IMG/VR virus record: IMGVR_UViG_3300010352_001565
Coordinates: 115,055 to 179,054 of that record
DNA length: 64,000 bases
Source of the DNA: a virus
Direction: 5' to 3' (one strand)
Positions 36,471-61,766 of this stretch are shown here, piece by piece. A program made the translations under genes and the position numbers. Position 1 is the first letter of the stretch, and the number at the start of each line of letters is the position of its first letter. Under the pieces are notes generated by a model. The model had not been told where the DNA came from. It did no database searches and saw nothing but the letters and a program-made list of their open reading frames with translations.

Positions 36471-36483
36471 TAGTTAGCGCATG
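36471..36483 (+). promoter_or_regulatory. late-type motif TAGTTA-N4-ATG
   Basis: gcTAGTTAgcgcATG. Confidence 0.5.
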
Positions 36484-39273
36484 CAGCGACATGATGCTCC
36501 GGGAGTCTACTTAAAGGTTGAGGATCGCAGCCAAGTGATTGGCGGCGAACTTGACGAGTTTGGCTCGAACCTGCGCTACCACCCGAAACCAAGACCAGAG
36601 AAGAGCCCGTTTGCTCCCATCATACTGGTTCAACCTGCCGATCTATTCATTGAGCGAGGCCAGGCCGCGGCGTTCTCTGTGTTTGCGACCGGATCTAAGC
36701 CTCTTCGCTACACATGGTACATCAACTCTGAGCCTGTCCCAAACAATGATACGCCAGAGCTGTCACTCACCAACGTGAGAAACACCACCGACGTCTGGGT
36801 GGACGTCGAGAATGCATACGGAGCCGTGAGGAGCAACCCCGCTTCAGCGAAAGTCCACGTCCCGGTAATAATTCCTCCCTCGATTCGGACGCAGCCTTCC
36901 AGTATCCATGACGCGATTCCGCACATCGAAGTAACGTTTACGGTTGACGCTCGTGGGACAGACCCAGACTACCAGTGGTACGCCGATGGCCAACCTGTGG
37001 GCACAAACAGCAGCGTTCTGAAAGTTCTTGCGGACGCCAACGCCGACTATACCGTGGAGGTCTACAACGAGGCTGGAAGCGTCACAAGCAACGTCGCAGA
37101 GCTTCGTCTTATGGAGGCTCCGATAATCCTCGTTCAACCAGTGGCAGTGTCAGCTCCGAAGGGAAGCCAAGCCACTTTCAGAGTTACGGCATCCGGGGCT
37201 CAGATGTCGTACCAGTGGTTCCGCAACGGAACTCCCGTTGGGATAGACAGCAACGAGCTTGTCGTGAACGCAACCGCATCAGCGAACTTTTGGGTGGTCA
37301 TCACGAATCCTGCAGGACACACCCAGAGCGCGACGGTTCACCTTTCAATTCAGACCGTCATCACATCACAGCCAGCAGACACAACAGTGGCTCCTGGAGA
37401 CTCTGCAATGTTTGCAGTAACGGCAACGGGAGAAGGACTAAGCTACCAGTGGTGCTACGAAAATGGAACTGCAATAAGTGGCGCGACATCGAGCGTGTAC
37501 CAAGTCATAGGAACATCTGGAGCTGGATTCAAGGTCAAAGTCACAGGGTCTGACGGAGTCACTGTGACTAGCAGGGTGGCGCGGTTAACCGTGCAAGCGC
37601 TAGCAACGCGGATCGTCACCCAGCCGGTTGACTCGTTTTCGAACACGTACCATCCAGAAGGGAGATACGATCCGAGCGATCCGTTTCGGAATCCTCCAAC
37701 GGTACAGTTTACTGTAGGCGCCGTGGGCACCAACTTAAGGTACCAATGGTACTGCAACGGGGTTACAACCGAGGATTACGATGGAAGTCCAGGAACATCT
37801 GCTACGTTTGTTCACCCGCGGGCAGACTACCCGAACTGGGAGAATAACGGAGACGTATTTACGTGCAAAGTTACTGGAGATGACGGAGTCACTGTAACAA
37901 GCCAGCCAGCGACGCTTCACCTTACTCCAGATGGAACGTCTCTTGGTCTTGCCACCGGAGGGGCGGACGCCATAGAAGGAACGACAGGATTTGGAATCAT
38001 TTACTACGTTGGTGGAGACGGCCTACTTCTGAAGGTCACAAATAATAGCGGGACTGTCCTGTTTAACGGCGCGCTAAACAGCCGCATAAACAATCCTGGA
38101 ACTTTTGGCGTTCCGGCAGTAGCGCTCGGCACTACCACGTACACATTTGAGCTTAAAGGAGCCGACGGCGTCACGATAACTAAAAGCGCGACGTACACTG
38201 GCAGTCCTTTAACCATAAGTCTGGCTACTCCTCTGACTCCTGCGACCACAACTGTGCTCGGACAAGTGCTGTTTACAGTCGGTGTCACGTCTAACATGAT
38301 ACCAGTCCCAAGTTCTCACGGAGTTGGTGACGGCTGGAATGAAGGCACATACAGCGTCGAGTACACAGTTTGTCCAGCTTCGTACTCGTACTGGTATAGA
38401 GGGAGCGTGGAAACTCCAACACCAGTATTCTTCGCCCACGGGAGCTCGATGAGCGACAACCTTTCTTGCAACACCTGGACGACCAAGTTTTTCCCTCAGA
38501 GCATTGCTGACAATGGAATGGTTGTGACATGCAAGATTACGGCCGTGAATGGAACTGTGCAAAAATCAGTGACAACGACCGCGCTGCTGACGGTAAGACC
38601 TCGTCCTCCACAAATAGTCACAAACCCATCTGCGGTCACGATAGACACGACGCAGACTGCAACATTCACCATAGGCGCGGTAGCTCCCGATGGAGACACA
38701 CTAGCGTATCAGTGGTACAGAGGGTACCTCGACTGGCTTTGGTGGGGAAATCCGATTTCAGGAGCCACGTCACCAACGCTTAACCTGTCAGGACTTAGCT
38801 CATGCGAGGACTGGATAGGGTGCGTGGTAACTGGAACTGGAGGGAACGCCGTCATGACCGTTGGAGTTCCGCTTCACGTTCAGCAAGCACTTCCGCTCTC
38901 TAAGTCATTCACATCCGTAAACCAAAAAGTGGTAGACCTGAGTTTCGGATTTCTTCCTGCTGGAACGTACCACGTCAAGTATACAGGGGGCTTGCTGAAG
39001 TTTAGCCCTGATGGAAACTGGAGAATTGACCAGGCCAACGCCGGGTTTGTAGTTTGGAACAACTTTAACAAGCACACCGACTACCCTCCAGAGTACGTCT
39101 TCTACTACCGGGTTAAAATTCTCGTCAATGAGGGAGGATGGTACGACCACAGCGAAATTGACTTCTACCATGATGGGACCGGAGAAGTGTTCGTCAGGTT
39201 CGTTGACTGGAGCGCTGAGGACAACATTATCGGATCTCCTGCTCCGACCTTCCTGATGACGAGGGTCTCTTAG
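36481..39273 (+). CDS. 930-aa protein with multiple Ig-like repeats (fibre/decoration/receptor-binding candidate)
   Basis: At least five repeats carrying YQW(Y/F/C)..G..(I/V).G(A/T).S..(L/Y) signature typical of bacterial Ig-like domains. Confidence 0.65.
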   Translation: MQRHDAPGVYLKVEDRSQVIGGELDEFGSNLRYHPKPRPEKSPFAPIILVQPADLFIERGQAAAFSVFATGSKPLRYTWYINSEPVPNNDTPELSLTNVRNTTDVWVDVENAYGAVRSNPASAKVHVPVIIPPSIRTQPSSIHDAIPHIEVTFTVDARGTDPDYQWYADGQPVGTNSSVLKVLADANADYTVEVYNEAGSVTSNVAELRLMEAPIILVQPVAVSAPKGSQATFRVTASGAQMSYQWFRNGTPVGIDSNELVVNATASANFWVVITNPAGHTQSATVHLSIQTVITSQPADTTVAPGDSAMFAVTATGEGLSYQWCYENGTAISGATSSVYQVIGTSGAGFKVKVTGSDGVTVTSRVARLTVQALATRIVTQPVDSFSNTYHPEGRYDPSDPFRNPPTVQFTVGAVGTNLRYQWYCNGVTTEDYDGSPGTSATFVHPRADYPNWENNGDVFTCKVTGDDGVTVTSQPATLHLTPDGTSLGLATGGADAIEGTTGFGIIYYVGGDGLLLKVTNNSGTVLFNGALNSRINNPGTFGVPAVALGTTTYTFELKGADGVTITKSATYTGSPLTISLATPLTPATTTVLGQVLFTVGVTSNMIPVPSSHGVGDGWNEGTYSVEYTVCPASYSYWYRGSVETPTPVFFAHGSSMSDNLSCNTWTTKFFPQSIADNGMVVTCKITAVNGTVQKSVTTTALLTVRPRPPQIVTNPSAVTIDTTQTATFTIGAVAPDGDTLAYQWYRGYLDWLWWGNPISGATSPTLNLSGLSSCEDWIGCVVTGTGGNAVMTVGVPLHVQQALPLSKSFTSVNQKVVDLSFGFLPAGTYHVKYTGGLLKFSPDGNWRIDQANAGFVVWNNFNKHTDYPPEYVFYYRVKILVNEGGWYDHSEIDFYHDGTGEVFVRFVDWSAEDNIIGSPAPTFLMTRVS

Positions 39274-41078: not shown

Positions 41079-41106
41079 TTTACATTTTTCCGAAGAATGA
41101 TATAGT
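41079..41106 (+). promoter_or_regulatory. sigma70-like promoter P7 (TTTACA-N16-TGaTATAGT), ATG 8 nt downstream
   Basis: aaaaatagttgcaaataaatgTTTACAtttttccgaagaaTGaTATAGTgcttgtgtATG. Confidence 0.6.
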
Positions 41107-41114
41107 GCTTGTGT

Positions 41115-41996
41115 ATGCCAGATCAAAACAACACTGAACTCGTTACGACCGTCGGCGTCGAGATCGAGATGGAAAACACACGGAATGTCAACTCAGATGT
41201 CCGTTTCATCTCTGACAAGCTCTCCCGTGCCGGTCTCAACTGGGTCGTTAAAACAGACGCTTCTTGCGGCCGCTCTGGAGCGGGAGTTGAGCTAAACTCT
41301 CCCATTCTGCGCACCGACGCTGATCTCAATTCTGTGTCGAGAGTCTGCGAAATGATGGATGAACTTGGTTATAAGGTGACGAAGAAATGCGGGTTGCACG
41401 TCCATATCGACGTCCGCCGTCTCACTGAGGACGAGAGAAACCGCCTTATCCGCTTCTTTGTCCAATACCAAGACTGCTTCTTTGAGCTCGCTCCTGGACG
41501 CCGCGCGGTGCACTACTGCGCGCCGCTGACGGCAGACGTGCTTGCTAAGCTGCGGCAAAACCGCGGTTGGTCTGCGTGGTCTACCCGCTATTTCTGGATG
41601 AACGGGTGCGCTTACACGGAACACGGCACTGTTGAGTTCCGCCTGATGAGTGGCAGCCTCAACCCGAATCATGTGACTGGATGGGTCAACTTCTTGCTTT
41701 ATGTCTATGACAAGGTTGTGAACCACGGAGCTTTCGGAGACGCCACATTCTTCCATCCAGATGCTTCGACTGGACGCGACTGCTTTGACAAAATGCTGCA
41801 CGTCACTGGACTTGACAACCTCGAGGTTGAAGGTCGAGCTGAAGTTGCTCGCAGCTGGGTGACCGCTCGCTGGGACGACGCTCACTCAGATGTCCAGTCA
41901 ATTCGCGCCGAACGACGCCGCCGCCTCCAAGCTGCTTGGCGCGGTGAAGCCCCGTATGTGAAAATCGTATCGCCTAACACCACAATGGCTGACTAG
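41115..41996 (+). CDS. glutamine-synthetase-fold amidoligase (Amidoligase_2/GCS2-like), paralog A
   Basis: TVGVEIEM first strand, GLHVHIDV, VEFRLMSGSLN; same three blocks in genes 43378 and 56981; ORF track start 41109 is alternative upstream codon. Confidence 0.6.
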   Translation: MPDQNNTELVTTVGVEIEMENTRNVNSDVRFISDKLSRAGLNWVVKTDASCGRSGAGVELNSPILRTDADLNSVSRVCEMMDELGYKVTKKCGLHVHIDVRRLTEDERNRLIRFFVQYQDCFFELAPGRRAVHYCAPLTADVLAKLRQNRGWSAWSTRYFWMNGCAYTEHGTVEFRLMSGSLNPNHVTGWVNFLLYVYDKVVNHGAFGDATFFHPDASTGRDCFDKMLHVTGLDNLEVEGRAEVARSWVTARWDDAHSDVQSIRAERRRRLQAAWRGEAPYVKIVSPNTTMAD

Positions 41997-41997
41997 T

Positions 41998-42186
41998 ATG
42001 GGAGACATGGGAGACACATTCAGAGAATTGAAGGACGAACGAAAGCGACTCCGTGAAGAGCACGGAGTCAGCTGTCCTCAGTGCAACGTCAAGCAGCCGA
42101 AGCGGATTCCGACTACCCTTCTGCCGGGACAGCGGTGCAAGGTTTGCGGGTACGTCGACCCGCGTCCGCGACTTCCGTGTTCTTAA
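41998..42186 (+). CDS. small zinc-ribbon protein
   Basis: CPQC..(18 aa)..CKVC. Confidence 0.35.
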   Translation: MGDMGDTFRELKDERKRLREEHGVSCPQCNVKQPKRIPTTLLPGQRCKVCGYVDPRPRLPCS

Positions 42187-42303: not shown

Positions 42304-42822
42304 TTGGTCATGCTGTCACGGCGTGTTCTTCTGCTCATGAGCAGACTCTACGCTTTGAGCAAAATAATCTCGTTCCATGACTTGCGCACCTGGAGATCTC
42401 ACCAAGCCGGAAAGGTGGTCGCGACCAATGGAGTCTTCGACATACTTCACGCCGGTCACTGCTCATATCTTCAGCAGGCAAAAGAGCTCGGAGACCGCCT
42501 TGTCGTAGGAATCAACAGCGACTTCGCCGTCAAGTCCCTTAAAGGACCGGCACGCCCAGTAAACTCCCAAGACCACCGCGCCCAGGTACTTGCAGCTCTC
42601 GAGTGCGTTGACGCAGTTTGCATTTTCGACAGCACAAACGCTTCCCTATTTCTTATGCTTGCCGACCCGACCATCTGGGTGAAGGGAAGCGACTACAATA
42701 TCGACAAGGTGAATAAAGAAGAGCGGGATGTGCTTCAGAGCCTCGGGACTGAGATCAAATTCATTCCTTTAGTGGTCGGACTTTCAACAACTTCAACCAT
42801 CGCCAAGATCAATGGACTTTAA
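42304..42822 (+). CDS. sugar-1-phosphate nucleotidyltransferase, RfaE domain II/HldE-like (ADP-heptose synthase-type)
   Basis: TNGVFDILHAGHCSYLQQAKELGDRLVVGINSD..VKSLKG..RPVN..R..VLAALE.VD.V..F...KG.DY parallels RfaE-II FTNGCFDILHAGHVSYL..A..LGDRLIVAVNSD.S.KRLKG..RPVN; HxGH motif. Confidence 0.7.
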   Translation: MVMLSRRVLLLMSRLYALSKIISFHDLRTWRSHQAGKVVATNGVFDILHAGHCSYLQQAKELGDRLVVGINSDFAVKSLKGPARPVNSQDHRAQVLAALECVDAVCIFDSTNASLFLMLADPTIWVKGSDYNIDKVNKEERDVLQSLGTEIKFIPLVVGLSTTSTIAKINGL

Positions 42823-43381
42823 GAAGGATCCGAAGTGCGCCCCGATCGAAATGCGCCGAGATGTGGAGCACCTGGTTGAGATGATCTACACCAACCTGAA
42901 GCAGCCGTATGCATCAATCTGGATCTCCCAGGTGACCCTCCTGGCTCCTCGGTGCAACACAACTAAGCTGTGCAAGGCCATGACATTCTGGATCCTTAAC
43001 GAGCTTACTGGGATGGTCGATTCAATTCGCGCTAGACGCCTAAAAAGGACGATTGCGTTTTACTACAAAATCCATACATCCGAGGCGGCGCACTGCAAGG
43101 CGCTTGTTCATCGGAAAACAAAGAAAGCGGCTCTCCGGTCCAGGGGATACGCCCAGAAGTTCGCCGTTCAGGCCATGGCGTTTGCAATTAAAAACGGGTA
43201 CCGCTCATCAGCCCAGGCTCTTAGGGCGTGCATGCTGTCGCGAATCGCGGTCCGCTCAGGGTCTAAGAAGCACTATCAGCTCAGGCCACATCTTGCTCCT
43301 CACACAGATCCGTTCGGATGCTACACCCATGCCGCCGTAACACTTCTGGTGATGCTTAACCGCTTTGTAGTTAAGCAGTGA
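42812..43381 (+). CDS. hypothetical basic protein
   Basis: 189-aa ORF. Confidence 0.4.
   Translation: MDFKKDPKCAPIEMRRDVEHLVEMIYTNLKQPYASIWISQVTLLAPRCNTTKLCKAMTFWILNELTGMVDSIRARRLKRTIAFYYKIHTSEAAHCKALVHRKTKKAALRSRGYAQKFAVQAMAFAIKNGYRSSAQALRACMLSRIAVRSGSKKHYQLRPHLAPHTDPFGCYTHAAVTLLVMLNRFVVKQ
43368..43380 (+). promoter_or_regulatory. late-type motif TAGTTA-N4-GTG
   Basis: tgTAGTTAagcaGTG. Confidence 0.45.
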
Positions 43382-44373
43382 ACGCCAGACGCGAAATTTG
43401 CAATCTGTTTGAGGACGCTGATCTCAATCTTGGCAGCGTTGGAATTGAGATCGAGATGCTTGCCAGGAAGGACTTGGTTGCAAACCGAGAGCTTGAAGCA
43501 GTTGTCCGCCAGCTCGATTTCACGTACGGGTTCGACGATTCTGTCACTCCAATGGCAGGAAGCCTTGAGGAGCTTTACACAAACGTTGAAATCTCAATCG
43601 GTCCTGATAGGTGGGACTGGATCTCCAAGCGGTTGATGAAGATGCTGGCGTACCTCAAGCACGAGGACTACGTCGCGGTTTCTCGAAAGCACTCAAACAG
43701 CCCTGTCTCAATTTCAACTGAAACGGATCTCTACTCTGATGGCGCAAAGAAAATCAGGCTCGCAAGAGCAAGGGTCCCTCAAAATTTCTCCGCCGGAGTT
43801 CACATCCACTTCGACGCCAACAGCTGGTTTTCAGGAACAGAGCACGCAGCTCGGTTTGTCAAGGTGCTAAATCGCTGGATTGAAGATGTTCCGAGACACC
43901 TGCCAGTTCAGCGTTACGGAAACGACGGCGAGCGAGGCCACGAGTTCGCCAGGATCCAAGGTTATCACGAATTGAACGGGGACAACTGGGGATCAGGATA
44001 CATCAAGCCAGCGGAGTATTTCCACAGAATAGGAAAGAATGTTGACAGGTTCATGGCGCTCAACGTTAAACCAGCTCTGAAACGCGGCGACATTGAGTTC
44101 AGATTCATGCACGGAACTCTCAACTACGCAACAATCGCGGGTTGGTTTGAAACCCTGGCAGAGCTTATGACATACGCGCAGCGCGAGCATGGAGGGTTTT
44201 CGGACTTCGTAGCTTGGTCTGCAAAGAAAGCTCCTGAGACCAAGAAGTTCATCGAGAAATCGTACAAGCTGAGCAAGGCGTCAAAAGAGCCGATCAGAAT
44301 TTCCCCATCAAGAGCCGCTAAAAAGATCCTCAATCCGCGGGCGGCTGACGCGCCTGTGTCAAACCCGGCATAA
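43378..44373 (+). CDS. GS-fold amidoligase, paralog B
   Basis: SVGIEIEM, GVHIHFDAN, IEFRFMHGTLN. Confidence 0.6.
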   Translation: MNARREICNLFEDADLNLGSVGIEIEMLARKDLVANRELEAVVRQLDFTYGFDDSVTPMAGSLEELYTNVEISIGPDRWDWISKRLMKMLAYLKHEDYVAVSRKHSNSPVSISTETDLYSDGAKKIRLARARVPQNFSAGVHIHFDANSWFSGTEHAARFVKVLNRWIEDVPRHLPVQRYGNDGERGHEFARIQGYHELNGDNWGSGYIKPAEYFHRIGKNVDRFMALNVKPALKRGDIEFRFMHGTLNYATIAGWFETLAELMTYAQREHGGFSDFVAWSAKKAPETKKFIEKSYKLSKASKEPIRISPSRAAKKILNPRAADAPVSNPA

Positions 44374-44375
44374 GG

Positions 44376-44404
44376 TTTACAAACTTAAGCAAGCGTGCTA
44401 TGTT
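44376..44404 (+). promoter_or_regulatory. sigma70-like promoter P13 (TTTACA-N17-TATGTT)
   Basis: ggTTTACAaacttaagcaagcgtgcTATGTTagacaaagccATG. Confidence 0.35.
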
Positions 44405-44414
44405 AGACAAAGCC

Positions 44415-44660
44415 ATGGTACTGTTTTTCATACTTCTGCTGGTTTGGACATTTGCGATCGTAATGGCCGCGGCCCTGCTGTGGCTTATTTTTGCCGGACT
44501 TAAACCAGCGCTGAAAGGAATGGCAAACTACTCCGGATTGATTTGGCTAGCTATTGTCATCTCTCTTATCACGCTTTTTGTGGCGCATGACGACCGTGTC
44601 ACCGGATGGGTATTCGTCGTGATGATAGCCATCAGCCTTATTGCTTCGCATCGCAAGTAG
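44415..44660 (+). CDS. small membrane protein (3 hydrophobic segments)
   Basis: MVLFFILLLVWTFAIVMAAALLWLIFAG..; second in-frame ATG of ORF 44400..44660. Confidence 0.35.
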   Translation: MVLFFILLLVWTFAIVMAAALLWLIFAGLKPALKGMANYSGLIWLAIVISLITLFVAHDDRVTGWVFVVMIAISLIASHRK

Positions 44661-44941
44661 TTCTTTTTGACATGCAAGTGTGGGAACTCAGACAGATCCT
44701 TGAAGGACTTGACGGAAACACCGAAATTGTGGCGGGGCAGAAGGGCAGAATCGGCGGCGTTCACCTCTTTGTAGACTGGCAGATTGAACCAGGACGCCGC
44801 GTTGTCTCAGTTGTTCCAGACCAGCCGATGTCTGGTCTGCTTGGAAGGCAGCAAGCGCAAATAACCGCCATGATTGATAAAAAGAAAGCTGATGACGCAG
44901 CTCGCGCGCAAAACACTATCCTCCCTGGCGAGGAGGAATAA
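44606..44941 (+). CDS. hypothetical protein (start uncertain, possibly ATG 44672)
   Basis: ORF 44606..44941. Confidence 0.3.
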   Translation: MGIRRDDSHQPYCFASQVVLFDMQVWELRQILEGLDGNTEIVAGQKGRIGGVHLFVDWQIEPGRRVVSVVPDQPMSGLLGRQQAQITAMIDKKKADDAARAQNTILPGEEE

Positions 44942-45766
44942 CTAGATCACGTGGGGCTCAATCTTTCCAAGAGCTCCGGCCAGCTGTGTAAACGACGACC
45001 CTCTCGTTCCGATAATTTCCTCACACGCTCCTAGGGAGTAGAGATCACACAGCGCTTCAAACATCCCTTCTTTCGACGAGCGATCAACTCCGTTTTCTCC
45101 CCACGCCAGCTTGTTCTGAACCGTTACTCTGCTTCCGTATCTCCTGACAAAGTCTCGAGTCACATCCATGCTGTCTGTCGAGAGAAAGATTGGACGGCCG
45201 GCACAGGCATGATCGATCCTGCAGAAAAATGGCGTTGGCTTGTTTTCATGCCAGTTGACCGACCGCGCGTGGACCCCGACTGACCCGGGTTTCACTCGCG
45301 CGACGCTTGAGTCGATCAGCTTTTGAAGCGCGTCTGTCGGGACAAGCTTGCGAATCCGACTATGGATTTCTCCCATGGCCGTCCCATAGTCGTCGCCGCT
45401 AAACCTCGGGCTTCCCCACGAGCGGATCAGCACGATCGTCTCCCGGTCACGAACGTCTATCGGCTGCTCTGGGTTGTACACCTTCAGAGAGTGCGCAGTA
45501 TCGAGCATCCAGTAGAAGTCCCACTCGCTTATAAGGTGAACGTCCATCTTAAACAAATCGTTGAAGTTGCACCCCACACCGTCGCTTCCGTTTACCGGCC
45601 AATAGAGTGCCAAGTTTCGGCGTGTAACCTCGGCGATCCTCTGGCATCCTGCGAGAGTAAAGATTCTGTTGGATAGACCCGCGCTGCAAGTTGCATACAA
45701 GATCTCGTTTAATCCACTCGGATTCGTGTAGAAAGGCCACACCGCTTTTTCTTTGTAGTGATGCAT
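44942..45766 (-). CDS. GT11/GT23-like (fucosyltransferase-type) glycosyltransferase
   Basis: Minus-strand ORF trimmed to internal ATG (MHHYKEK..); N-terminal CSAGLSNRIFTLAGCQRIA resembles G-x-G-N-x-(L/M)F motif I; C-terminal GTRGSSFTQLAGALG resembles motif III (S-T-F-S..A). Confidence 0.5.
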   Translation of the reverse strand: MHHYKEKAVWPFYTNPSGLNEILYATCSAGLSNRIFTLAGCQRIAEVTRRNLALYWPVNGSDGVGCNFNDLFKMDVHLISEWDFYWMLDTAHSLKVYNPEQPIDVRDRETIVLIRSWGSPRFSGDDYGTAMGEIHSRIRKLVPTDALQKLIDSSVARVKPGSVGVHARSVNWHENKPTPFFCRIDHACAGRPIFLSTDSMDVTRDFVRRYGSRVTVQNKLAWGENGVDRSSKEGMFEALCDLYSLGACEEIIGTRGSSFTQLAGALGKIEPHVI

Positions 45767-46176: not shown

Positions 46177-47310
46177 ATGAGTAACGTATCACCGCAGCAA
46201 GTCGCCTCTGTAATGAGGCTCACGGACAACCAGCTCAAAGCCGAATATTGGATCGGCAATAAGACTGGCCACTTGTTCAGGATCATCCGTATCGAAGGAA
46301 ACGGTTCCGCCCGCGAGGTCACCTACTGCGCTCCCGGCCAGCAAGAGACCTATACGAAGCCTCTTGACAAGTTCGCCAAAATCTTCCACCAAGCTGATCG
46401 CGACGAGATCTACTCTATTCTCGCTCCGCTGATTCAGCCTGTCGGTGAGGATGAAGCTGTTGGTCTGCTTATTGAACCCGACCAACGCCACGACTTCGGC
46501 CGCATCATCCTCCACGAGGAAACCCGCTTAGCCATCTCCACCGGTCTGAAGCGCATTCAAAACCGCGACGCCATGGAGCAAGTTTGGGGTCTGAGCGCCA
46601 TTGAGCCTCTCGGCAACCGCTGCATCTTGAACGGCTGGGGATTGCCCGGCACCGGCAAGACGCTCGCCTGCTACTGCATCGCTCGCATGCTTGAGAAGAA
46701 AGTCTATCAGGTCGACTACTCTGCCATCATTTCAAAGCAGCTTGGTGACACTGCCAAGCACATTGTGGCTGCGTTCGCTGCTGCCAAAAAACACGACGCC
46801 ATCTTGCTTTTCGACGAAGCAGACTCTCTTGTGTCTCGCCGCATCGAGATAGCCATGAGCACGTCGTTCGCGACCAGCATCAACCAAAACCGCAACGTGT
46901 TCATGCAGGAGCTTGACCGCTATGACGGGATCGTTTACTTGACCACCAACATGTTCGAGAACTACGACCCAGCCATGCTGCGCCGCATTGCTCGTCACAT
47001 CCCGTTCAATCTGCCCAATGCAGAAATGCGCCGGCAACTCTTTGCATGGCACCTCCCTCGCGTCGAGCGCGTCCGCATTAGCGATTGGACGAACATCTGC
47101 GCTTCGACAGAGGGCTTCTCTGGCGGCGACATCAAGAATGTTGTCATGAATTCGATCGACCGCGTCAGCATGAGCGAGGACCCGGAAACGTGGTATCTGA
47201 CTGAGGACGCTGTTCTCACTGAGGTTGGACTCATCAAGAGCTCCAAGGAACGCCACGCCCGGAACAACGGCCGCAATGACGAAGCCATCGCCGCAGCCAC
47301 CTTGAAATAA
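46177..47310 (+). CDS. AAA+ ATPase
   Basis: Walker A GLPGTGKT, Walker B ILLFDEADSL, sensor-1 TTN, arginine finger region MLRRI. Confidence 0.7.
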   Translation: MSNVSPQQVASVMRLTDNQLKAEYWIGNKTGHLFRIIRIEGNGSAREVTYCAPGQQETYTKPLDKFAKIFHQADRDEIYSILAPLIQPVGEDEAVGLLIEPDQRHDFGRIILHEETRLAISTGLKRIQNRDAMEQVWGLSAIEPLGNRCILNGWGLPGTGKTLACYCIARMLEKKVYQVDYSAIISKQLGDTAKHIVAAFAAAKKHDAILLFDEADSLVSRRIEIAMSTSFATSINQNRNVFMQELDRYDGIVYLTTNMFENYDPAMLRRIARHIPFNLPNAEMRRQLFAWHLPRVERVRISDWTNICASTEGFSGGDIKNVVMNSIDRVSMSEDPETWYLTEDAVLTEVGLIKSSKERHARNNGRNDEAIAAATLK

Positions 47311-47645
47311 TGCGAGTCGTCCAAACAGTTTCTCACTACGACGGTCGCGTCAGAAAGCGCGACAAGTGGACCTGGGCCGTCCGTCTCGACGGAACGGCCC
47401 AGGAGCTTAAAACCGTCCAGTATGTGGTCTATGAGCTGCACGAGTCCTACCGCGACCCGATTCAGATCGTGGACGACCCGCGGAACAACTTTAGGCTCTT
47501 CGGGGCATCCTACGGCTCATTTACGATTGGAGTTGAGATCTACTTCAAGCACGGGACTCCCGGCATGTCTGGGAAGAAACTGAAAGCGAAGATAAAGCTC
47601 CGCCTGTTTTACCCGACGGGGCTTTATCACCGAATTGAAGACTAG
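47310..47645 (+). CDS. hypothetical protein
   Basis: 111-aa ORF, ATGA overlap. Confidence 0.4.
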   Translation: MRVVQTVSHYDGRVRKRDKWTWAVRLDGTAQELKTVQYVVYELHESYRDPIQIVDDPRNNFRLFGASYGSFTIGVEIYFKHGTPGMSGKKLKAKIKLRLFYPTGLYHRIED

Positions 47646-48526
47646 TCCGCCATGATGGCCTGGACTTTAACCTTTCCAGTCGAGGCCTCTGATTCTCCGT
47701 AGTAGAAACGGAGCCACACCGCGCCGGTCGGTTTAGGAGGACCGCCGCGCTCGATGTGCCAGCCTTCAGAACCATCCGCAAACTCATCCTTGTAACCCGG
47801 CGTCTTAATGTGAAGCTGGGTGTCTTTGTAAATCACGCCAGAGTTGCTCAACCTCAACCTCTCGATCGGGAAGATCCATTCGTTGTGGGTGTGGCCTGTG
47901 CACACAATGTCGGCGTCAGGCAGGTACACCGACATGCGGTTTGTTTGGATCGTTCCTTTGGTAACCGGAGCGTCGCCTCCGTAGCCATGGTGGTAGTACA
48001 GTCGCTTGCTGAGCCGCTGCGTGCCGTGCACGGTAAACATGAACCGCATCCATCCAGAGAATCCTCCGATATAGATCGGGTTGTCGACAGGACGCATTGT
48101 GTTTAGGATCTGAACGAACCTCTCTGTCAGGTTTGTCTGATGATGCTTGAGAATGCTTCCCTCGTGGTTTCCTGGGGCAACAAGAGCAAAATTCTTAGCG
48201 TACGGTTTGTAAAAATCGGCGTTGTAGTTGACGAGCCTGTCGAGGTAGTTCGCTCCTCGAAGCTCGGGACGCATTTGACTTTCGTCAGCGCGCTTATCCC
48301 ATTTTCCTTGCATCGCACAGAAAAGATCCCCGTACTTCACGATCAGCGCGTCGCGCTTAAGCGCCTCATCGAGATGTTTCTTTTCAAGAGCATGATCGCA
48401 ATGAATGTTGTCGTGGTGTTCGTCAGATGAAAGTAAGACCCACTGTTCCCATCCCAATTTAACGTCATCGATGTACACTGACAATACATTCCGGGACTCC
48501 GACCTTAGCTGAATGGAGTTTTTCAT
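47642..48526 (-). CDS. calcineurin-like metallophosphoesterase
   Basis: SSDEHHDN, APGNHEG and GHTHNEWIF blocks (GDxHG / GNHE / GHxH metallophosphatase motifs); convergent with gene 47310. Confidence 0.65.
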   Translation of the reverse strand: MKNSIQLRSESRNVLSVYIDDVKLGWEQWVLLSSDEHHDNIHCDHALEKKHLDEALKRDALIVKYGDLFCAMQGKWDKRADESQMRPELRGANYLDRLVNYNADFYKPYAKNFALVAPGNHEGSILKHHQTNLTERFVQILNTMRPVDNPIYIGGFSGWMRFMFTVHGTQRLSKRLYYHHGYGGDAPVTKGTIQTNRMSVYLPDADIVCTGHTHNEWIFPIERLRLSNSGVIYKDTQLHIKTPGYKDEFADGSEGWHIERGGPPKPTGAVWLRFYYGESEASTGKVKVQAIMAD

Positions 48527-49580: not shown

Positions 49581-49590
49581 TTAGGGGGTG
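49578..49590 (+). promoter_or_regulatory. late-type motif TAGTTA-N4-GTG (TAG is stop of upstream gene)
   Basis: gcgTAGTTAgggGGTG. Confidence 0.5.
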
Positions 49591-51444
49591 AGCTCAGCCA
49601 AAGCACTGCTCGAAGGCCTTGTACAGGAGTCGGTAACGTACCGACTTCCAGCGTCTAAAAACGTCCTGTTTTACGATTTCTACGCCCTCGCCTATCTTCA
49701 GAGCCTTCAACTCGATCCTGAAGCGAAAGGTTCAGACTCTTTCAAAGGAGCTTCTCAAACGTCGTTCACTACCAGAGACTCTGTTTCGCGCGATGTTGAA
49801 CACGCTGCTGGGGTGCTAATTCCGTACCTTAGAAAAGAGCTTAGTAACGCCACCTTCTTGAGCATCTGCGCCGAGATCCGGCACCTGTTTGACAACCATC
49901 AAAGTCCAGAGTTCTGGCAGACGATGACGAATCACCGCCTGTTCAGGTTGTACGCGAGGAAGCAGGCGGAGGCTGTTAGTAGCATATCAAACCTTCCAGG
50001 AGTCAACCGTCCAGTTAGGACACCTCCCGTTTCAGGAACTCAGCCAGGATACGACAAGGCCATGAAAGCGGCCATCTGGGCCATCAAGAAAGGTGGCTCC
50101 ACGATGGGCGAGTTTGTCAGGCTGGCTAGGTATGCGTTCCAGCGCGGTCACTGGAGCTCGTCATACGGCGGTAAGGCGTGGGCTAACATCTGCGATGGAT
50201 GGGAGATGCTCAACTCGGACAAGTCAAACGACCTCAAGTCTGCCGCTGTCGCGATAGACCACGTGTTCGACATGCAGCACAACACGGGCACGGTGCTCAA
50301 CAAAGTCCAGGAGTATGCAATCAACGGCGGCTATGGCTGGCTTTCAGGAGCGTTGAACTACAAGGCAAGCGTTAAATCGATACATGCGCTCCTTGACAGG
50401 TGCTCGAGTGACATGCGCAAACTTTCTAAGGTGGCGTTGAAATCAGCTGGAATACCTGATGAGCACGAGCCTCCTCCGAAGACTCTCAAGCTTGCTGGGT
50501 ATAACGCACAGCCTCCTGACCCTCCGTTGCACGGCAAAGTTGGAGTGGTAGACTCCGCAGGAAACTTCCAGACCACCGCCATAAACCTTACCGGAAGATT
50601 CAAATTCCCGGAAGGAGCGATCGGAAACATTGACGCTCCCGCATGCACGGTTATCAGCGGACCTATAACGTTCCCTGAAAAGTGCAAGAGGCTTTACTTT
50701 CCGAATCTCGTAGCAGCGTCGTTTGACATCGTGTTTCCTCACGAGTGCGAGACCATCAGCATGCCGCGCATTCAACATCCTCACTTTAAAAATCTCCCAT
50801 TTAAGTGCCAAGACTTAAATTTTCTTGGCGCTCTAAGCTTACCGTCGGGATTCGCATTTCCAAAAGTGTGCGGCGACGTCTATCTGAAAAGCTTGAAGCA
50901 CTTTCCGATGAATGTGGTATGGCCAGAAAAGTGCGGCTCTTTTCATCTTGACAGCATGAAAAGCGAAGAGCTTTTGAAGTTCGAAAACCTTCCACAAGCA
51001 CACTTTCTATGCCAGGACAAAATGGTGAACGGGATAGCTCAGGTGGCGCCTAAAGGAGACGAGCCCAAAACTGAAAAGACGCCTCACTGGGTTAAGGAGT
51101 TCGGACCTGAGTACGCTGTTCCTATTGAGCTATACAACAACTCTGATTTTGTGGATGGCTCGTGGCACAACGATGCATGCCCTAGTTTTTACTACCACCT
51201 GAGCGAAGACCTTATAATTTACTGCGAGCACCCTGATCCAGACAAGCGCGAAGATACCTGCAGCGCAAGGTTCACGGCGTGCAGTACCAACGAGTTCTCA
51301 GGCTTTGTTACTTTCTACGAAGGGGACGACGTGCGACGCGCCATGGAAGCGATCAAGAAGGCGTACAAAGAAGGACCACCGAAACAGCAGGAACCGCCAA
51401 GCCAAGAGCCTCCGGCTGGACCCAACCTAAACATCAAAATCTAG
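49588..51444 (+). CDS. 618-aa paralog of gene 13669 N-terminal module, with C-terminal Cys-containing leucine-rich-type repeats
   Basis: N-terminal ~450 aa collinear with 13669 (many identical blocks); C-terminus has repeated F(P)xxC..L..(I/V)..P units (BspA-type LRR-like). Confidence 0.6.
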   Translation: MSSAKALLEGLVQESVTYRLPASKNVLFYDFYALAYLQSLQLDPEAKGSDSFKGASQTSFTTRDSVSRDVEHAAGVLIPYLRKELSNATFLSICAEIRHLFDNHQSPEFWQTMTNHRLFRLYARKQAEAVSSISNLPGVNRPVRTPPVSGTQPGYDKAMKAAIWAIKKGGSTMGEFVRLARYAFQRGHWSSSYGGKAWANICDGWEMLNSDKSNDLKSAAVAIDHVFDMQHNTGTVLNKVQEYAINGGYGWLSGALNYKASVKSIHALLDRCSSDMRKLSKVALKSAGIPDEHEPPPKTLKLAGYNAQPPDPPLHGKVGVVDSAGNFQTTAINLTGRFKFPEGAIGNIDAPACTVISGPITFPEKCKRLYFPNLVAASFDIVFPHECETISMPRIQHPHFKNLPFKCQDLNFLGALSLPSGFAFPKVCGDVYLKSLKHFPMNVVWPEKCGSFHLDSMKSEELLKFENLPQAHFLCQDKMVNGIAQVAPKGDEPKTEKTPHWVKEFGPEYAVPIELYNNSDFVDGSWHNDACPSFYYHLSEDLIIYCEHPDPDKREDTCSARFTACSTNEFSGFVTFYEGDDVRRAMEAIKKAYKEGPPKQQEPPSQEPPAGPNLNIKI

Positions 51445-52267: not shown

Positions 52268-52771
52268 ATGAACACAAAGTGGTCGACGTTCGTGCGACTA
52301 GATCTTCAAGACAGAGACCTCAAAGGTCTTGGTGCAGCTGGGATCATTTCCCAGAAAGCAGATGAAACATGGGTCAACTCCACCTACATGGTGACCCTAA
52401 CCCGAGACGTTCCTGTTGGTCAAGGCTGGACATCCAAGATGATCCGGCTCACCATCAAGCGTCGCGACAAGAAACCCATCCATGACTGGCGCGACATGCA
52501 GCGCATCAAAAACGAGCTTGTCGGTGCTGAGCACGAAGCCATGGAAATGTTCCCTGCCGAGGAGCGCCTGGTAGACACTTCAAACGTCTTCTTCCTGTTT
52601 GTGTTCGCTGACCCAAAGGTTCGCTGGCCGTTCGGCTTCGCGACCAGGTGGGTCAACAACGTTTCGGAGAATGGAAGTGTCCAACGCCCATTCCCTCTCG
52701 ACGACATGCCAAAGGATTGCATGACCGCCGCGCAATATCAGGAATTCCGTGCAACGCAAAAGGAACAATGA
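52268..52771 (+). CDS. hypothetical protein
   Basis: 167-aa ORF, ATGA overlap with thyA. Confidence 0.45.
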
Positions 52772-53697
52772 AGCAATACCATGACCTCCTTCGCTTGATT
52801 CTCAACGAAGGAAAAATAACAACCGACCGCACTGGCACAGGCACGCAGTCTGTGTTTGGTGCTCAAGCCCGCTTTCCTCTGAAAGATGGCTTCCCACTTC
52901 TCACCACCAAGAAGCTTTACACGAAAGCTATCATCCACGAGCTTCTTTGGTTTATACGCGGGGTCGCAAAGCCAGGCGACCCGATGATGCTCAACTACCT
53001 GAAAGATAACGGCGTCACCATCTGGGATGAGTGGGCAGATGAAAACGGAAGCCTTGGCCGCGTCTACGGCGCCCAATGGCGAGATTGGATCGGCGTTGAT
53101 CCTAACACTGGAAGCGTGACGCATACCGACCAGCTCGATGCTTTGATCAAGCGCCTGATCAGTAAGCCAGACGACCGCCGCCTCATCGTCACTGCCTGGC
53201 AGCCTTCTGAGGTCCACTGCATGGGGCTCCCCTCGTGCCACTGCTTCTTCCAGCTGAAAGCGTATCCGCTGACGCTTGAAGAGCGGATCGCCGAATTCCA
53301 TCGCCGAAATCCTTCTGTCGACGCGTTTATCAGCAATGACTCTGACCTCGAGCGCTACGACATTCCGAAGCACAGTCTCGATCTTCAGCTATACCAGCGC
53401 AGCTGCGACACTTTCCTTGGCGTGCCATTCAACATTGCATCATACGCGCTGCTGACCATGATGATTGCCCAGGTCGCCAATATGATGCCCGGAACTTTCA
53501 TTCACACCTATGGTGACCTTCACCTGTATCTCAATCACATCGAACAGGCTAAGCTGCAGCTCACCCGCGATTGCCGCCCGCTTCCGAAGATGGTTATCAA
53601 CCCGAATGTCAAAGACATTAACCAGTTCACCTACGAGGACTTCAAACTCGAAGGATATGATCCCCACCCAACCATCAAAGGCGAAGTCTCTGTATAG
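52768..53697 (+). CDS. thyA: thymidylate synthase (canonical ThyA type)
   Basis: [16 protein letters not shown], catalytic LPSCHCFFQ (Cys), [21 protein letters not shown]; ORF 52648 trimmed to MKQYHDL with AAGGAA SD-like 4 nt upstream. Confidence 0.8.
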
Positions 53698-53700
53698 CAT

Positions 53701-54057
53701 ATGTTTCGCGAAAAAATACTAGCCGTAGTTCGCGTTGAGTTTGCTGAACCCGTCACTGTAAACCTGACGGCTGCAAGCTCGCACGAGCCGGATCTTGTCA
53801 CTATCAATTTCGGATCTGCTTCCGAATTTCCGCTGAACCGCCTTGAGAATCTCAAGAAAGGATCGATTGTCACGATTTACACTCGTCTTCCAAAGAGCCG
53901 CGTGTTGTGGCCCTGGTCTTTTCGCGTGAACCGCCAAGGCCAATCGATGGCATCGCGCCATAAACCGGCAGGATGGCAAGTAGCATTTTCTCCATCCGTA
54001 GGAGATCCTGTCACAATTGAGATTGTGAGCATGGACATAACCGCATCAACTGTATAA
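53701..54057 (+). CDS. hypothetical protein
   Basis: 118-aa ORF. Confidence 0.4.
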   Translation: MFREKILAVVRVEFAEPVTVNLTAASSHEPDLVTINFGSASEFPLNRLENLKKGSIVTIYTRLPKSRVLWPWSFRVNRQGQSMASRHKPAGWQVAFSPSVGDPVTIEIVSMDITASTV

Positions 54058-54075
54058 GTAGTTCTTTAGTACTTT

Positions 54076-54891
54076 ATGTCAAAACAATTCTTCGCGCTAA
54101 ACGACGGGTCAAACCCTCTTGCTTGTAACCTAACAGAGTTGAACGCCGCTGAGTCGGTCGATAATGGCTTCATGAGCCACAACGACTGGATCGCCCACGT
54201 TAACCGTTATGCTTACACCGGCAAGGTCATCCAGAAATCAAAACCTGGCACGATCCTTGACGTGGGATGCGGAAAGCTCCAGCTTCCGTACTACCTGTGG
54301 CGCAACCGCCTACATCTGGAAGAAAACGGGTCCTACTGGGGTATCGAACTCCGCGCCAAGCAGGCGTGGCTTGAACCGATCAACTGGAAGACCAGCATGA
54401 ATCTCATCAAGGCTGACATCATTCTTGACGAGATCAACGAAGACAACATTGAATTCTGGCCTGGCCAGTTCGACCTTGTCACCTGCTTCGAGACGTGGGA
54501 GCACGTTCCGCGCGACAAAGCCATCATTCTGGCCGAGCGCTTGTTCAACTGGACGAAGCCAGGAGGAATCCTGTTGTTCAGCTCTCCGAATGCCGGAGTG
54601 TCCGATTCAACGGCTGACAACCACACGGACGCAGAAGGCGAAAGCCGCGAGTGGGAGATGGAGTCGAAGATTGAAGTTCTCGAAGACGCTGGATTCAGCC
54701 TGCACGAGAACTTTGGAACGTTTTGCGGCATCACTCGCCTTCCTGAGGAGTTCCAGGAGCGCCTGCGCACCGACGCCTTGCTGATCCAGGCGAAGAAGTT
54801 CCTGAACCACGCAAACTTCACGGCGCTTGTGGCCGCGGCATACCCGCAGTTCAGTAACAACAGCCTGATGCACTTTGTGCGCAGAGCGTAA
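54076..54891 (+). CDS. class I SAM-dependent methyltransferase
   Basis: Motif I ILDVGCGKLQ, downstream DLVTCFETWEHV (motif II/III), Rossmann-MTase length. Confidence 0.6.
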   Translation: MSKQFFALNDGSNPLACNLTELNAAESVDNGFMSHNDWIAHVNRYAYTGKVIQKSKPGTILDVGCGKLQLPYYLWRNRLHLEENGSYWGIELRAKQAWLEPINWKTSMNLIKADIILDEINEDNIEFWPGQFDLVTCFETWEHVPRDKAIILAERLFNWTKPGGILLFSSPNAGVSDSTADNHTDAEGESREWEMESKIEVLEDAGFSLHENFGTFCGITRLPEEFQERLRTDALLIQAKKFLNHANFTALVAAAYPQFSNNSLMHFVRRA

Positions 54892-55091
54892 TGTTTAAAG
54901 TTCAGTTCATAGACTCAGTCCCACGGTGGGCGAACGACGCCCGGTATTTTGCGCGAGGTCCTAGCGGTCCTTATAGCCAGCGCGAGATTCACCGGGTGTT
55001 TCGCCGCCGTGGGTTTTTTCCGATTGGTAGAGAAGTGTTCGACAGCGAGTCGAGCACAAAAAGGTTGGTAGCAAAGCTAGTCCCAGCGTAA
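54891..55091 (+). CDS. hypothetical small protein
   Basis: 66-aa ORF. Confidence 0.25.
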   Translation: MFKVQFIDSVPRWANDARYFARGPSGPYSQREIHRVFRRRGFFPIGREVFDSESSTKRLVAKLVPA

Positions 55092-55093
55092 TC

Positions 55094-56107
55094 GTGAAAG
55101 CAAAGTTGTTTTTGGTAGATGGAGCAGACGGAACCGGAAAATCTACCCTTGCAGAGGAGATCCGGAGACAGACAGATGGAGTCATCCTTCACCAGAGTTA
55201 CCGCTGGCGCGACATGATGTTTGTCTACCACACAGCCGCCCTCCACTTCGCCGAAAAGTTCATCGCTAAAGGAAAGACGGTCATCCTCGACCGCCACTGG
55301 CCGTCAGAGATGGTATATGGTAAAGTGTTCAGGAACGGATCCCGTTGGCCTCTTGAAGGACGCATGATGGACCGAGTCATACTCAAGATGGCAGGAACGT
55401 ATATCTTCACCCTTGGAGATCCAGAGGCCATCGCCAAGCGCCATGCCCAGCTTCAGTGCGTCCGAAGGGAAGAGTATTCGCACTCGATTTCTCAAGTAGC
55501 CACAGAATACAACAACCTATTTTATGGGTTTCCGCACAAAGTTGCCAAAGACCACGCCGAATTTATTGCAAGCACCGGAGGCTTCATACACAGGAAAGAT
55601 GCGTTCGCTTATCGTATGGAGATCGAAGGACAGGATGTCTGCGGTTTTGTTGAAGCTCTGATAAACAAGGCTGGAAAATACACCGCAGTGCAGTATCAGC
55701 CAGCTCTTCAGTCCCGATTTCGAAATGTGCTAGGCCACATCGAGTCTGCTCGCTTTCTAATCGTCGGTGACGAGGCAAACCCGAAGATGAACCACATCTT
55801 TTGGCCGTTTCATGACTACGGTCACTCTAGCTTGTTTTTGGCCCGCACCTTGCACAACATCAACTTCCGCGAAGAAGATGCGATGTGGACCAACGTGAAT
55901 CACTCTGACCATGCTGACGCGCACATTCGCGCAATACTAGAGATGAAACCACTCCGCGTGGTAGCTCTCGGCAAGAATGCTGAAGCTGGATTGAAGAAGA
56001 TTGGGGTCAACGACTTTGTGACTGTCAGGCACCCGCAAGCGGCAATGCGATTTTCGTCGCTTTCGGATGTGTCTTACAAGGACGAATTGAGCCGAGCATT
56101 GTTCTAA
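55094..56107 (+). CDS. fusion of P-loop (d)NMP-kinase-like domain and UDG-superfamily-fold domain (5-hmdU DNA kinase / aGPT-Pplase-like candidate)
   Basis: GTG start; N-terminal LVDGADGTGKST (Tmk-like P-loop) and ILDRHW lid region; C-terminal VGDEANPK..WPF.D.G..SLFLARTL (cf. UDG family-4 motif A GEAPG..E...G.PF.G..G.LL) and RHPQAAMR (cf. motif B HPSPL). Confidence 0.55.
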   Translation: MKAKLFLVDGADGTGKSTLAEEIRRQTDGVILHQSYRWRDMMFVYHTAALHFAEKFIAKGKTVILDRHWPSEMVYGKVFRNGSRWPLEGRMMDRVILKMAGTYIFTLGDPEAIAKRHAQLQCVRREEYSHSISQVATEYNNLFYGFPHKVAKDHAEFIASTGGFIHRKDAFAYRMEIEGQDVCGFVEALINKAGKYTAVQYQPALQSRFRNVLGHIESARFLIVGDEANPKMNHIFWPFHDYGHSSLFLARTLHNINFREEDAMWTNVNHSDHADAHIRAILEMKPLRVVALGKNAEAGLKKIGVNDFVTVRHPQAAMRFSSLSDVSYKDELSRALF

Positions 56108-56112
56108 TAGGA

Positions 56113-56928: not shown

Positions 56929-56946
56929 AATAGTTGCAAATAAATG

Positions 56947-56974: not shown

Positions 56975-56980
56975 TCTGAT

Positions 56981-61750: not shown

Positions 61751-61766
61751 TACTTAGTCTAGACTT

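Follow-up and report, generated by a model that had tools for sequence, protein, structure and literature searches.

Why would a large phage carry an enzyme of the kind that makes ADP-heptose, and what might it do with the product? The question was raised by a 64,000-nt stretch of viral DNA (IMG/VR record IMGVR_UViG_3300010352_001565, positions 115,055–179,054), referred to in the following as the window, which encodes an HldC/RfaE-domain-II-type sugar-phosphate nucleotidyltransferase of 161 amino acids at 42337–42822 on the plus strand. Our preferred answer, to which we assign a probability of about 0.6, is that this enzyme belongs to a coupled accessory glycosylation module, conserved in a lineage of uncultured large phages, that combines sugar activation, sugar transfer and amide tailoring. 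The window is phage-like, encoding an immunoglobulin (Ig)-repeat protein of the Hoc or tail type and several families found only in PHROG. When the whole window was compared with GenBank phages, no near-identical DNA was found, and no Rfam families or tRNAs were found in it. Exact proteins of the region also sit on metagenomic contigs, the longest of 222,710 bp, so the source is probably an uncultured jumbo phage. Related fragments came from activated-sludge and other environmental assemblies.

The nucleotidyltransferase and the fucosyltransferase-fold enzyme

Gene callers on the source contigs place the start of the nucleotidyltransferase at ATG 42337; the longest open reading frame (ORF) begins at TTG 42304. 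The protein matched the NCBIfam model TIGR02199 (rfaE_dom_II) over 136 of 144 model positions (E = 1.3e-48, 164.5 bits), as well as PF01467 (Pfam CTP_transf_like) and phrog_7878. The closest solved structure was HldC from Burkholderia pseudomallei (5x9q, E = 1.5e-28), with the ethanolamine-phosphate cytidylyltransferase ECT (1e-16) and the glycerol-3-phosphate cytidylyltransferase TagD (2e-10) ranking well behind. An initial annotation, made from the sequence alone, had described the 42304 gene as similar to RfaE domain II over its full length, and the match across the whole domain and the proximity to HldC bear this out. Other identities were considered and rejected: there was no match to any nicotinamide mononucleotide adenylyltransferase model, and TagD (44 bits), CoaD (38 bits) and FAD synthetase (≈18–20 bits) scored far below the 164.5 bits of RfaE-II.

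The protein was aligned with 119 bacterial homologues, giving 45 columns that were at least 90% conserved, 16 of them invariant. The phage enzyme retains 42 of the 45 and all 16 invariant residues, and the latter are complete in all three phage versions aligned (the window and two relatives). The HIGH-type motif FDxxHxGH appears as FDILHAGH, and the C-terminal STT lies within GLSTTSTI. Retention of these columns suggests that the enzyme has been under purifying selection for its ancestral chemistry. We infer a heptose as the candidate sugar from one line of sequence evidence, this strong conservation of HldC residues.

The nearest bacterial homologues are 50–59% identical, and one of them is surrounded by housekeeping genes. 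A first search pointed to Verrucomicrobia as the host, but this assignment was discarded when species-representative genomes contradicted it, yielding homologues at 44–53% identity in Verrucomicrobiota, Armatimonadota, Bacteroidota, Burkholderiales, Bacillota and archaea. No one donor lineage stands out, because many phyla have genomes that are equally close.

The initial annotation had called such a gene unexpected in a phage. It is in fact common: relatives are encoded on at least 585 IMG/VR contigs and in 45 GenBank phage records, mostly cyanomyoviruses in which the gene is already annotated, and the gene has its own PHROG family and features in a published survey of jumbo phages. That survey (PMC7824862) describes HIGH-superfamily nucleotidyltransferases that act alongside PfkB kinases, epimerases and glycosyltransferases of at least eight families. 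On most marine viral contigs (IMG/VR loci L004–L083), the RfaE-II-type domain forms part of a kinase-plus-transferase fusion with a median length of 379 amino acids. By sequence appearance, unscored against models, its neighbors there include a short-chain dehydrogenase/reductase-type epimerase (61/80), a cupin (60/80), a GmhB-like phosphatase (20/80) and a transaldolase (15/80), a set that resembles an almost complete heptose pathway adjoining the familiar cyanophage transaldolase gene. In the 64-kb window, out of a genome of ≈222 kb, viral representatives of the heptose-pathway kinase, epimerase, cupin and phosphatase used as queries gave no match, and no heptose isomerase was present.

The second enzyme, encoded at 44942–45766 on the minus strand and convergent with the operon that contains the nucleotidyltransferase gene, is a 274-amino-acid GT-B glycosyltransferase of the fucosyltransferase superfamily (GT23/GT11/GT37/GT65-68-like). 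Single-sequence family scans returned nothing significant, the NodZ model giving E = 0.0055 and 16 bits against a gathering score of 28.3, and none of the Pfam gathering scores for NodZ, FUT8_N_cat, O-FucT or Glyco_transf_11 was reached. An exhaustive search defined a family of 1126 representatives, and their alignment displayed the fucosyltransferase motifs GLxNRL, GVHxRRxD, FLATD and SSFS. Among 60 members that were scanned, 25 matched NodZ and 12 matched FUT8 at E ≤ 0.01; members also matched O-FucT, xyloglucan fucosyltransferase and GT11 models. An AlphaFold model of the window protein, built from the family alignment, had a predicted local distance difference test (pLDDT) score of 94.6 and a predicted template-modeling (TM) score of 0.92. 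Searched against the PDB with Foldseek, this model returned fucosyltransferases as all of its top 50 hits (E from 4e-11 to 1e-8, TM-scores up to 0.66), with AtFUT1, FUT8, NodZ and POFUT2 as the top structural matches (E of the order of 1e-11 to 1e-9). The family-invariant residues His166 and Arg168 are kept, and motif II, (F/Y)LATD, and motif III, SSFS, are present. The GT11/23-like glycosyltransferase that had been annotated on the minus strand about 2 kb from the nucleotidyltransferase was therefore confirmed by the family motifs, the model and the structural matches.

Fusions to GT2, GT11 and pyruvyl-transferase domains, typical of polysaccharide synthesis, occur among bacterial members of the transferase family. 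Characterized fucosyltransferase-fold enzymes are known to use GDP-fucose-type donors, not ADP-heptose. No GT9 (Glyco_transf_9) heptosyltransferase was matched in Pfam scans of the window transferase genes and neighboring ORFs.

Linkage and translational coupling

Relatives of the module were recovered with the transferase and the amidoligase-like protein described below as queries. A word-indexed protein search found merely 2–4 relatives for each, and an exhaustive search was required; IMG/VR queried with the same two proteins, and a first metagenome scan, yielded no relatives. The transferase and nucleotidyltransferase genes lie within ≈2 kb of each other in five loci, namely the window and the relatives L084, L089, L173 and L176, at protein identities of 34–59% and with varying order and orientation. 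L084 (45–59% identical to the window) has a window-like order, except that an extra gene separates the nucleotidyltransferase gene from that for a small basic protein; here, as in the window, operon and transferase are convergent and ≈2 kb apart. L089 (34–48%) carries, in order, the transferase, a 62-amino-acid gene on the opposite strand, the nucleotidyltransferase, the small protein and two amidoligase-like genes; apart from the 62-amino-acid gene, all of these are on one strand. In L173 (36–46%), the transferase gene overlaps the nucleotidyltransferase gene by 4 nt, and an 80-amino-acid gene and a homologue of the small protein come next; in L176 (37–50%) the transferase lies 500 nt upstream of the nucleotidyltransferase. 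Where the contig extends far enough, the small basic protein and a glutamine-synthetase-fold amidoligase accompany the pair. A further short contig, L091 (about 21–40%), holds the transferase, a homologue of the small protein and, at its end and in place of the nucleotidyltransferase, a sugar-nucleotide epimerase-type gene, which again ties the transferase and the small protein to nucleotide-sugar metabolism.

For comparison, we examined 80 viral and 80 bacterial loci that encode relatives of the nucleotidyltransferase. No second window gene was found nearby in any locus of either set, so the pairing is specific to this clade of fucosyltransferase-like genes; fucosyltransferase-like genes at 31% identity or less have no nucleotidyltransferase partner. 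Since the linkage was kept through inversion, insertion and re-ordering at such divergence, it is good evidence of shared function. This much of the initial annotation, which had proposed a full activate-and-transfer set for an unusual, possibly heptose-type, sugar, was strengthened by the pairing in five diverged loci; the part about a full heptose set was not, as no other heptose gene was present in the window and no GT9 enzyme was detected among the transferases scanned.

The annotation had also overlooked the amidoligases and the small protein, which are translationally coupled to the nucleotidyltransferase. The operon likely starts at a promoter-like motif, TTTACA-N13-TGATATAGT, at 41079–41106 on the plus strand, which ends 8 nt before ATG 41115, and comprises genes for an amidoligase, a zinc ribbon, the nucleotidyltransferase, the small protein and an amidoligase-like enzyme. 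The first of these (41115–41996, plus strand) is an Amidoligase_2 protein, a glutamine-synthetase-fold COOH–NH2 ligase of 293 amino acids (PF12224, E = 1.4e-18, 68.1 bits against a gathering cut-off of 22 bits), which also matches phrog_2443, phrog_7469 and phrog_7631, labeled 'amidoligase', and whose C-terminus is conserved at the edge of the L084 contig. It is followed at 41998–42186 (plus strand) by a 62-amino-acid protein with two CxxC pairs, zinc-ribbon-like and with weak matches to zinc-ribbon Pfam families. Downstream of the nucleotidyltransferase, overlapping the end of its gene by 11 nt, is the gene for the small protein, a basic, helical protein of 189 amino acids (42812–43381, plus strand) with no family match. 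Homologues were recognized by position in L084 (45% identity), L089, L091 and L173, and all share with the window protein a C-terminal (H/Y)TD-x-(F/Y)G motif. A single-sequence structure model of the protein was discarded (pLDDT 40). The next gene overlaps the 189-amino-acid gene by 4 nt and encodes a divergent Amidoligase_2-like ligase of 331 amino acids (43378–44373, plus strand). Its PF12224 score of 23.7 bits is marginal against the cut-off of 22; homologues are present in L084 (56%), L087 (39%) and L089 (34%, as a tandem duplicate). Through the 11-nt and 4-nt overlaps, the nucleotidyltransferase, the 189-amino-acid protein and this ligase are translationally coupled. GATase_6, named as a partner in the Pfam description of Amidoligase_2, is encoded by two upstream genes beside the module in L089 and by none in the window.

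A third paralogue (56981–57961, plus strand; PF12224, E = 7.3e-21, 75.6 bits), with the promoter motif at 56947, places three diverged Amidoligase_2 paralogues (41115–41996, 43378–44373 and 56981–57961) within 17 kb. The promoter-like motif, TTTACA-N13/14-TGnTATAGT with a spacer that often includes TTTCCG, is strongly conserved. It occurs 11 times in the window (4042, 18232, 21752, 24981, 28276, 39835, 41079, 46141, 48594, 56947 and 58897), always on the plus strand, where 0 copies would be expected by chance, and a similar site is found in L084. At least nine of the 11 copies end 6–8 nt short of an ORF's ATG, which implies that the transcripts have little or no leader and that the genes form a single regulatory class.

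In the mechanism that we favor, the HldC-type enzyme would take a sugar-1-phosphate made by the host and, with ATP, convert it into a nucleotide-activated sugar, either ADP-heptose or a close analogue. The fucosyltransferase-fold GT-B enzyme, predicted to be inverting and to use a donor that is normally a beta-linked NDP-sugar, would then move the activated sugar onto an acceptor. One or more of the translationally coupled glutamine-synthetase-fold amidoligases may introduce or close an amide bond, either on this product or on the acceptor, and the small basic helical protein might serve as an adaptor or targeting factor.

Several observations weigh against this reading. The curated equivalog cut-off of TIGR02199 is 181.5 bits, above the 164.5 bits of the window enzyme; the phage relatives score 147 and 167 bits, and the nearest bacterial homologues, at 171–200 bits, straddle the cut-off. 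A neighbor-joining tree of 122 nucleotidyltransferases was unresolved, with the window enzyme and that of L084 joined in 20 of 50 bootstraps, and the three phage enzymes were grouped in none of the 50; such non-monophyly fits either poor resolution or repeated replacement. Motif I of the transferase reads HARSVN instead of the consensus HxRRxD, so that the second Arg and the Asp are missing. No characterized fucosyltransferase-fold enzyme is known to use an ADP-sugar. In none of the relatives does any other heptose-pathway gene adjoin the module, and without such genes any high-flux use looks under-supplied. All of the relatives may belong to one phage lineage, in which case the linkage would partly be inherited synteny.

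The stretch that follows the operon contains several smaller features. A predicted membrane protein of 86 amino acids (44400–44660, plus strand) has its own promoter-like site at 44376 and a counterpart in L084 with the same motif. It is followed by an 89-amino-acid protein (44672–44941, plus strand; 111 amino acids if the start is at 44606) that is conserved in L084 at 40% identity. Beyond the transferase gene, a pair of genes at 46177–47645 encodes an AAA+ ATPase related to the anti-phage protein IetA (PADLOC, E = 2.7e-28; NCBIfam IteA, E = 4.7e-24, far under the cut-off) and, from a start codon that overlaps the stop codon of the ATPase gene, a prokaryotic YEATS-domain protein (PF20305, E = 6e-14). 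This pair is conserved in L091 (3–1474). The ATPase was the only notable match when ten window proteins were scanned with PADLOC defense models, and the literature searched yielded no paper on YEATS domains of prokaryotes. A calcineurin-like metallophosphoesterase (47642–48526, minus strand; Pfam, E = 1.5e-4; PHROG 'DNA repair exonuclease', E = 3e-11) is convergent with the pair. Elsewhere in the window, the products of 13669–17901 (1410 amino acids) and 49588–51444 (618 amino acids) have a short domain in common, phrog_20946, which has no assigned function.

Candidate acceptors

What the module might modify was considered from the remaining genes of the window. Some 12 kb downstream of the module, 56113–56928 (plus strand) encodes a thymidylate-synthase-fold enzyme whose closest solved structures are MilA and the T4 deoxycytidine monophosphate (dCMP) hydroxymethylase. 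Alignment with 1b49 and 5jnh showed the segments DVTCT and MRSNDVVLGLVFD, with the catalytic Cys, an Asp at the position of Escherichia coli Leu143, a retained Asp169 and an Asp in place of Asn177. According to published criteria, Asp for Asn177 confers cytosine specificity, an acidic residue for Leu143 allows water access, and retention of Asp169 distinguishes the enzyme from a 5-hydroxy-dCMP synthase (PMC13326640). The signature thus points to dCMP hydroxymethylation and not to thymidylate or 5-hydroxy-dCMP synthesis. Immediately upstream, 55094–56107 (plus strand) encodes a deoxynucleoside monophosphate (dNMP)/thymidylate-kinase-like domain fused to a weakly matching C-terminal domain of the uracil-DNA glycosylase superfamily type. 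A true ThyA (52648–53697, 372.6 bits) lies upstream of this cluster, separated from it by a 118-amino-acid ORF, a class-I methyltransferase (54076–54891) and a 66-amino-acid ORF, and the third amidoligase gene directly follows the hydroxymethylase-like gene. Taken together, the block at 52648–57961 suggests that the phage DNA contains 5-hydroxymethylcytosine (5hmC) or a cytosine modified further. The 462-kb uncultured phage with the closest homologue of the hydroxymethylase had no other gene in common with the window.

As the hydroxymethylase-like gene adjoins a nucleotide kinase, 5hmC in DNA is a credible acceptor. The hydroxymethylase-like enzyme and the kinase would supply hydroxymethyl-dCTP; after replication, the module would transfer its sugar to the hydroxymethyl groups of the phage's own DNA, the amidoligases would tailor the product, and the result would shield the DNA from restriction and CRISPR nucleases. 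We regard this as possible, if tentative. The combination of a dCMP-hydroxymethylase signature with a dNMP kinase and a true ThyA is arranged as in T4, and the position of the third amidoligase immediately 3′ of the hydroxymethylase-like gene fits a role on DNA, as does the promoter motif that this amidoligase gene shares with the nucleotidyltransferase operon and with the operon upstream of a second glycosyltransferase gene, for a DUF5672–GT90 protein. The same motif, however, also stands 5′ of unrelated genes. Pfam amidoligases reportedly occur alongside genes for thymidine hypermodification in viral contigs (PMC8989533), and there is a precedent for the sugar as well, since heptosyl- and di-heptosyl-5hmC were formed in E. 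coli solely when a phage enzyme of the cytidylyltransferase family was present (bioRxiv 10.1101/2023.12.21.572611). The suggestion of modified DNA bases in the initial annotation has thereby gained a concrete, if still candidate, basis by analogy. On the other side, 12 kb separate the module from the hydroxymethylase, no dCTPase was seen in the window, and modification of every cytosine would outstrip the plausible donor supply of a lone last-step enzyme. Moreover, the structural matches of the transferase are fucosyltransferases and not known DNA glycosyltransferases (such as T4 alpha- and beta-glucosyltransferases, GT4-like arabinosyltransferases and JGT-like GT-A enzymes), and in bacteria its relatives occur as fusions with enzymes of polysaccharide synthesis. 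A more specific version, in which the fucosyltransferase-fold enzyme would be a new kind of heptosyltransferase using ADP-heptose, acting with the amidoligases to place an amide-tailored heptose on 5hmC while the small protein guides the enzymes to DNA, appears to us a long shot.

The module might instead alter the lipopolysaccharide, capsule or another surface glycan of the host, thereby blocking superinfection or keeping progeny from sticking to debris. We consider this only slightly less likely than a DNA target. ADP-heptose is mainly a precursor of the lipopolysaccharide core, and the fusions of the transferase family to GT2, GT11 and pyruvyl-transferase domains, like the small membrane protein in the module, are in line with an envelope target. 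An envelope target is also the published reading for jumbo phages (PMC7824862), and a role in progeny release or superinfection has been proposed for the cyanophage 'LPS' (lipopolysaccharide) clusters. The function of these clusters is, however, itself a proposal, and the window contained no flippase, polymerase, lipid-carrier transferase or GT9 enzyme. Nor can a host be inferred, the nearest nucleotidyltransferase homologues being spread across many phyla at 44–53%.

The link to the cyanophages comes in part from the DUF5672–GT90 protein. This two-domain glycosyltransferase, encoded at 60203–61750 on the plus strand, consists of a GT-A-like DUF5672 domain (E = 9e-19, 68.1 bits, cut-off 24.4) and a GT90 domain (E = 2.5e-12, 46.9 bits, cut-off 24). 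Both Pfam scores exceed the gathering cut-offs, in agreement with the initial annotation. Its placement of the enzyme in the same set as the nucleotidyltransferase and the fucosyltransferase-like enzyme held only in part: the gene is 17 kb away, and its sole tie to them is the co-occurrence of homologues in cyanophage glycan clusters. In cyanophage RN05-S, homologues of all three annotated genes are found in one 18-kb glycan cluster (nucleotidyltransferase 26%, fucosyltransferase-like 31% and DUF5672 35% identity), and its relatives are alike in this, which again favors an envelope target. It is the DUF5672 half that resembles a gene of this cluster, which also has a fucosyltransferase-like gene and a cytidylyltransferase. 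Just after the DUF5672–GT90 gene, a long open frame of at least 747 amino acids runs on the plus strand from ≈61760 to 64000 and past the end of the window. This frame explains why the region after 61750 seemed empty of genes; on visual inspection, its product resembles a structural protein of the baseplate type.

A third candidate target is protein. O-glycosylation of virion or other phage proteins, with peptide or amino-acid tags added by the amidoligases, is in our view slightly less likely again. A possible acceptor would be the 930-amino-acid protein of repeated Ig-like domains just upstream of the module (36481–39273), which matches PHROG tail proteins and Hoc-like head-decoration proteins. 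The fucosyltransferase superfamily (of which POFUT2 was a structural match) and GT90 both include protein O-glycosyltransferases that act on small repeat domains, and the DUF5672–GT90 gene abuts the long structural-looking ORF. The small flux required would suit a lone last-step enzyme. The YEATS-type domain nearby, conserved in L091, may also be relevant, as YEATS domains are readers of acyl-lysine in eukaryotes. A precedent is offered by virion glycosylation in mycobacteriophages (Freeman 2023, cited in PMC12801897). Against these points, no acceptor motif was identified, and the closeness to structural genes is possibly incidental.

Finally, it is improbable that the nucleotidyltransferase is a stand-alone auxiliary metabolic gene, taken from a bacterium to sustain the ADP-heptose of the host and flanked by unrelated genes kept by shared ancestry: its nearest homologues are bacterial chromosomal genes at 50–59% identity, the phage copies are not monophyletic and such genes occur in many unrelated viral contexts, but the linkage to the transferase has outlasted inversion, insertion and re-ordering in five loci at 34–59% identity, including a 4-nt overlap with the transferase gene in L173, and the window gene is translationally coupled to the genes downstream.

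Comparison with known systems

The coupled module that we favor resembles several known systems in part. Like the window, the glycan clusters of jumbo cyanophages (P-SSM2, S-SSM7 and the S-B43/RN05-S type) combine a HIGH nucleotidyltransferase of the RfaE-II/cytidylyltransferase type with several glycosyltransferases (PMC7824862). Those clusters comprise 15–18 genes, among which are kinases, epimerases, dehydratases and isomerases, and the one examined had no annotated amidoligase, whereas the window has a minimal core of a nucleotidyltransferase, one transferase, a small protein and one or more ligases, with the second glycosyltransferase 17 kb away. The metagenomic contig 53 (bioRxiv 10.1101/2023.12.21.572611) shares with the window an enzyme of the cytidylyltransferase family and a GT-B transferase, which in that system are both required to place heptose on a phage DNA base, and the window, too, has a candidate route to 5hmC. 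In contig 53, however, 5hmC is made by a methyltransferase and a ten-eleven translocation (TET)-type oxidase, a kinase–phosphatase of the haloacid dehalogenase/aminoglycoside phosphotransferase (HAD/APH) type is present and the transferase is like the T4 beta-glucosyltransferase; in the window, 5hmC would come from a thymidylate-synthase-fold enzyme, there is no such kinase–phosphatase and the transferase has a fucosyltransferase fold.

In the T-even phages, which rely on gp42, gp1 and the alpha- and beta-glucosyltransferases, a dCMP hydroxymethylase is likewise accompanied by a nucleotide kinase and ThyA, as is the enzyme with the corresponding signature in the window. The window showed no homologue of the T4 glucosyltransferases; T4 itself draws on the UDP-glucose of its host and lacks a gene for sugar activation. 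From the bacterial ADP-heptose pathway (GmhA, HldA/HldE, GmhB, HldC/HldE and HldD, leading to the GT9 enzymes WaaC and WaaF), the phage has a close relative of HldC. The window encodes only the last activating step, and its partner is of the fucosyltransferase fold, with no GT9 enzyme among the transferases scanned. That partner has the same fold as NodZ and FUT8 (GT23), AtFUT1 (GT37) and POFUT2 (GT68) and shares their three motifs, including the His-x-Arg of motif I, but has the second Arg and the Asp of that motif replaced, is only 12–18% identical to them and is paired with an adenylyltransferase-type enzyme instead of genes for GDP-fucose synthesis.

If the two enzymes do work together, the donor range of the fucosyltransferase superfamily would be wider than hitherto seen, and the module would represent a compact, portable cassette for an unusual glycoconjugate. 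With a dCMP-hydroxymethylase-type enzyme in the same genome, a new DNA hypermodification is a concrete candidate for what the cassette makes, and would be of interest for enzymatic DNA labeling and for how phages evade restriction and CRISPR. If the acceptor is a virion protein or a host glycan, the module would instead bear on phage adsorption and immune recognition. In the literature searched, there was no description of an HldC-type enzyme paired with a fucosyltransferase-fold transferase, a small basic protein and an amidoligase. Phage sugar activation and transfer as such are already known from the cyanophage glycan clusters, T-even glucosylation and metagenomic 5hmC glycans; what is new in the present module is the tight and repeatedly re-arranged pairing of an ADP-heptose-type adenylyltransferase with a fucosyltransferase-fold enzyme, coupled to amide-forming ligases.

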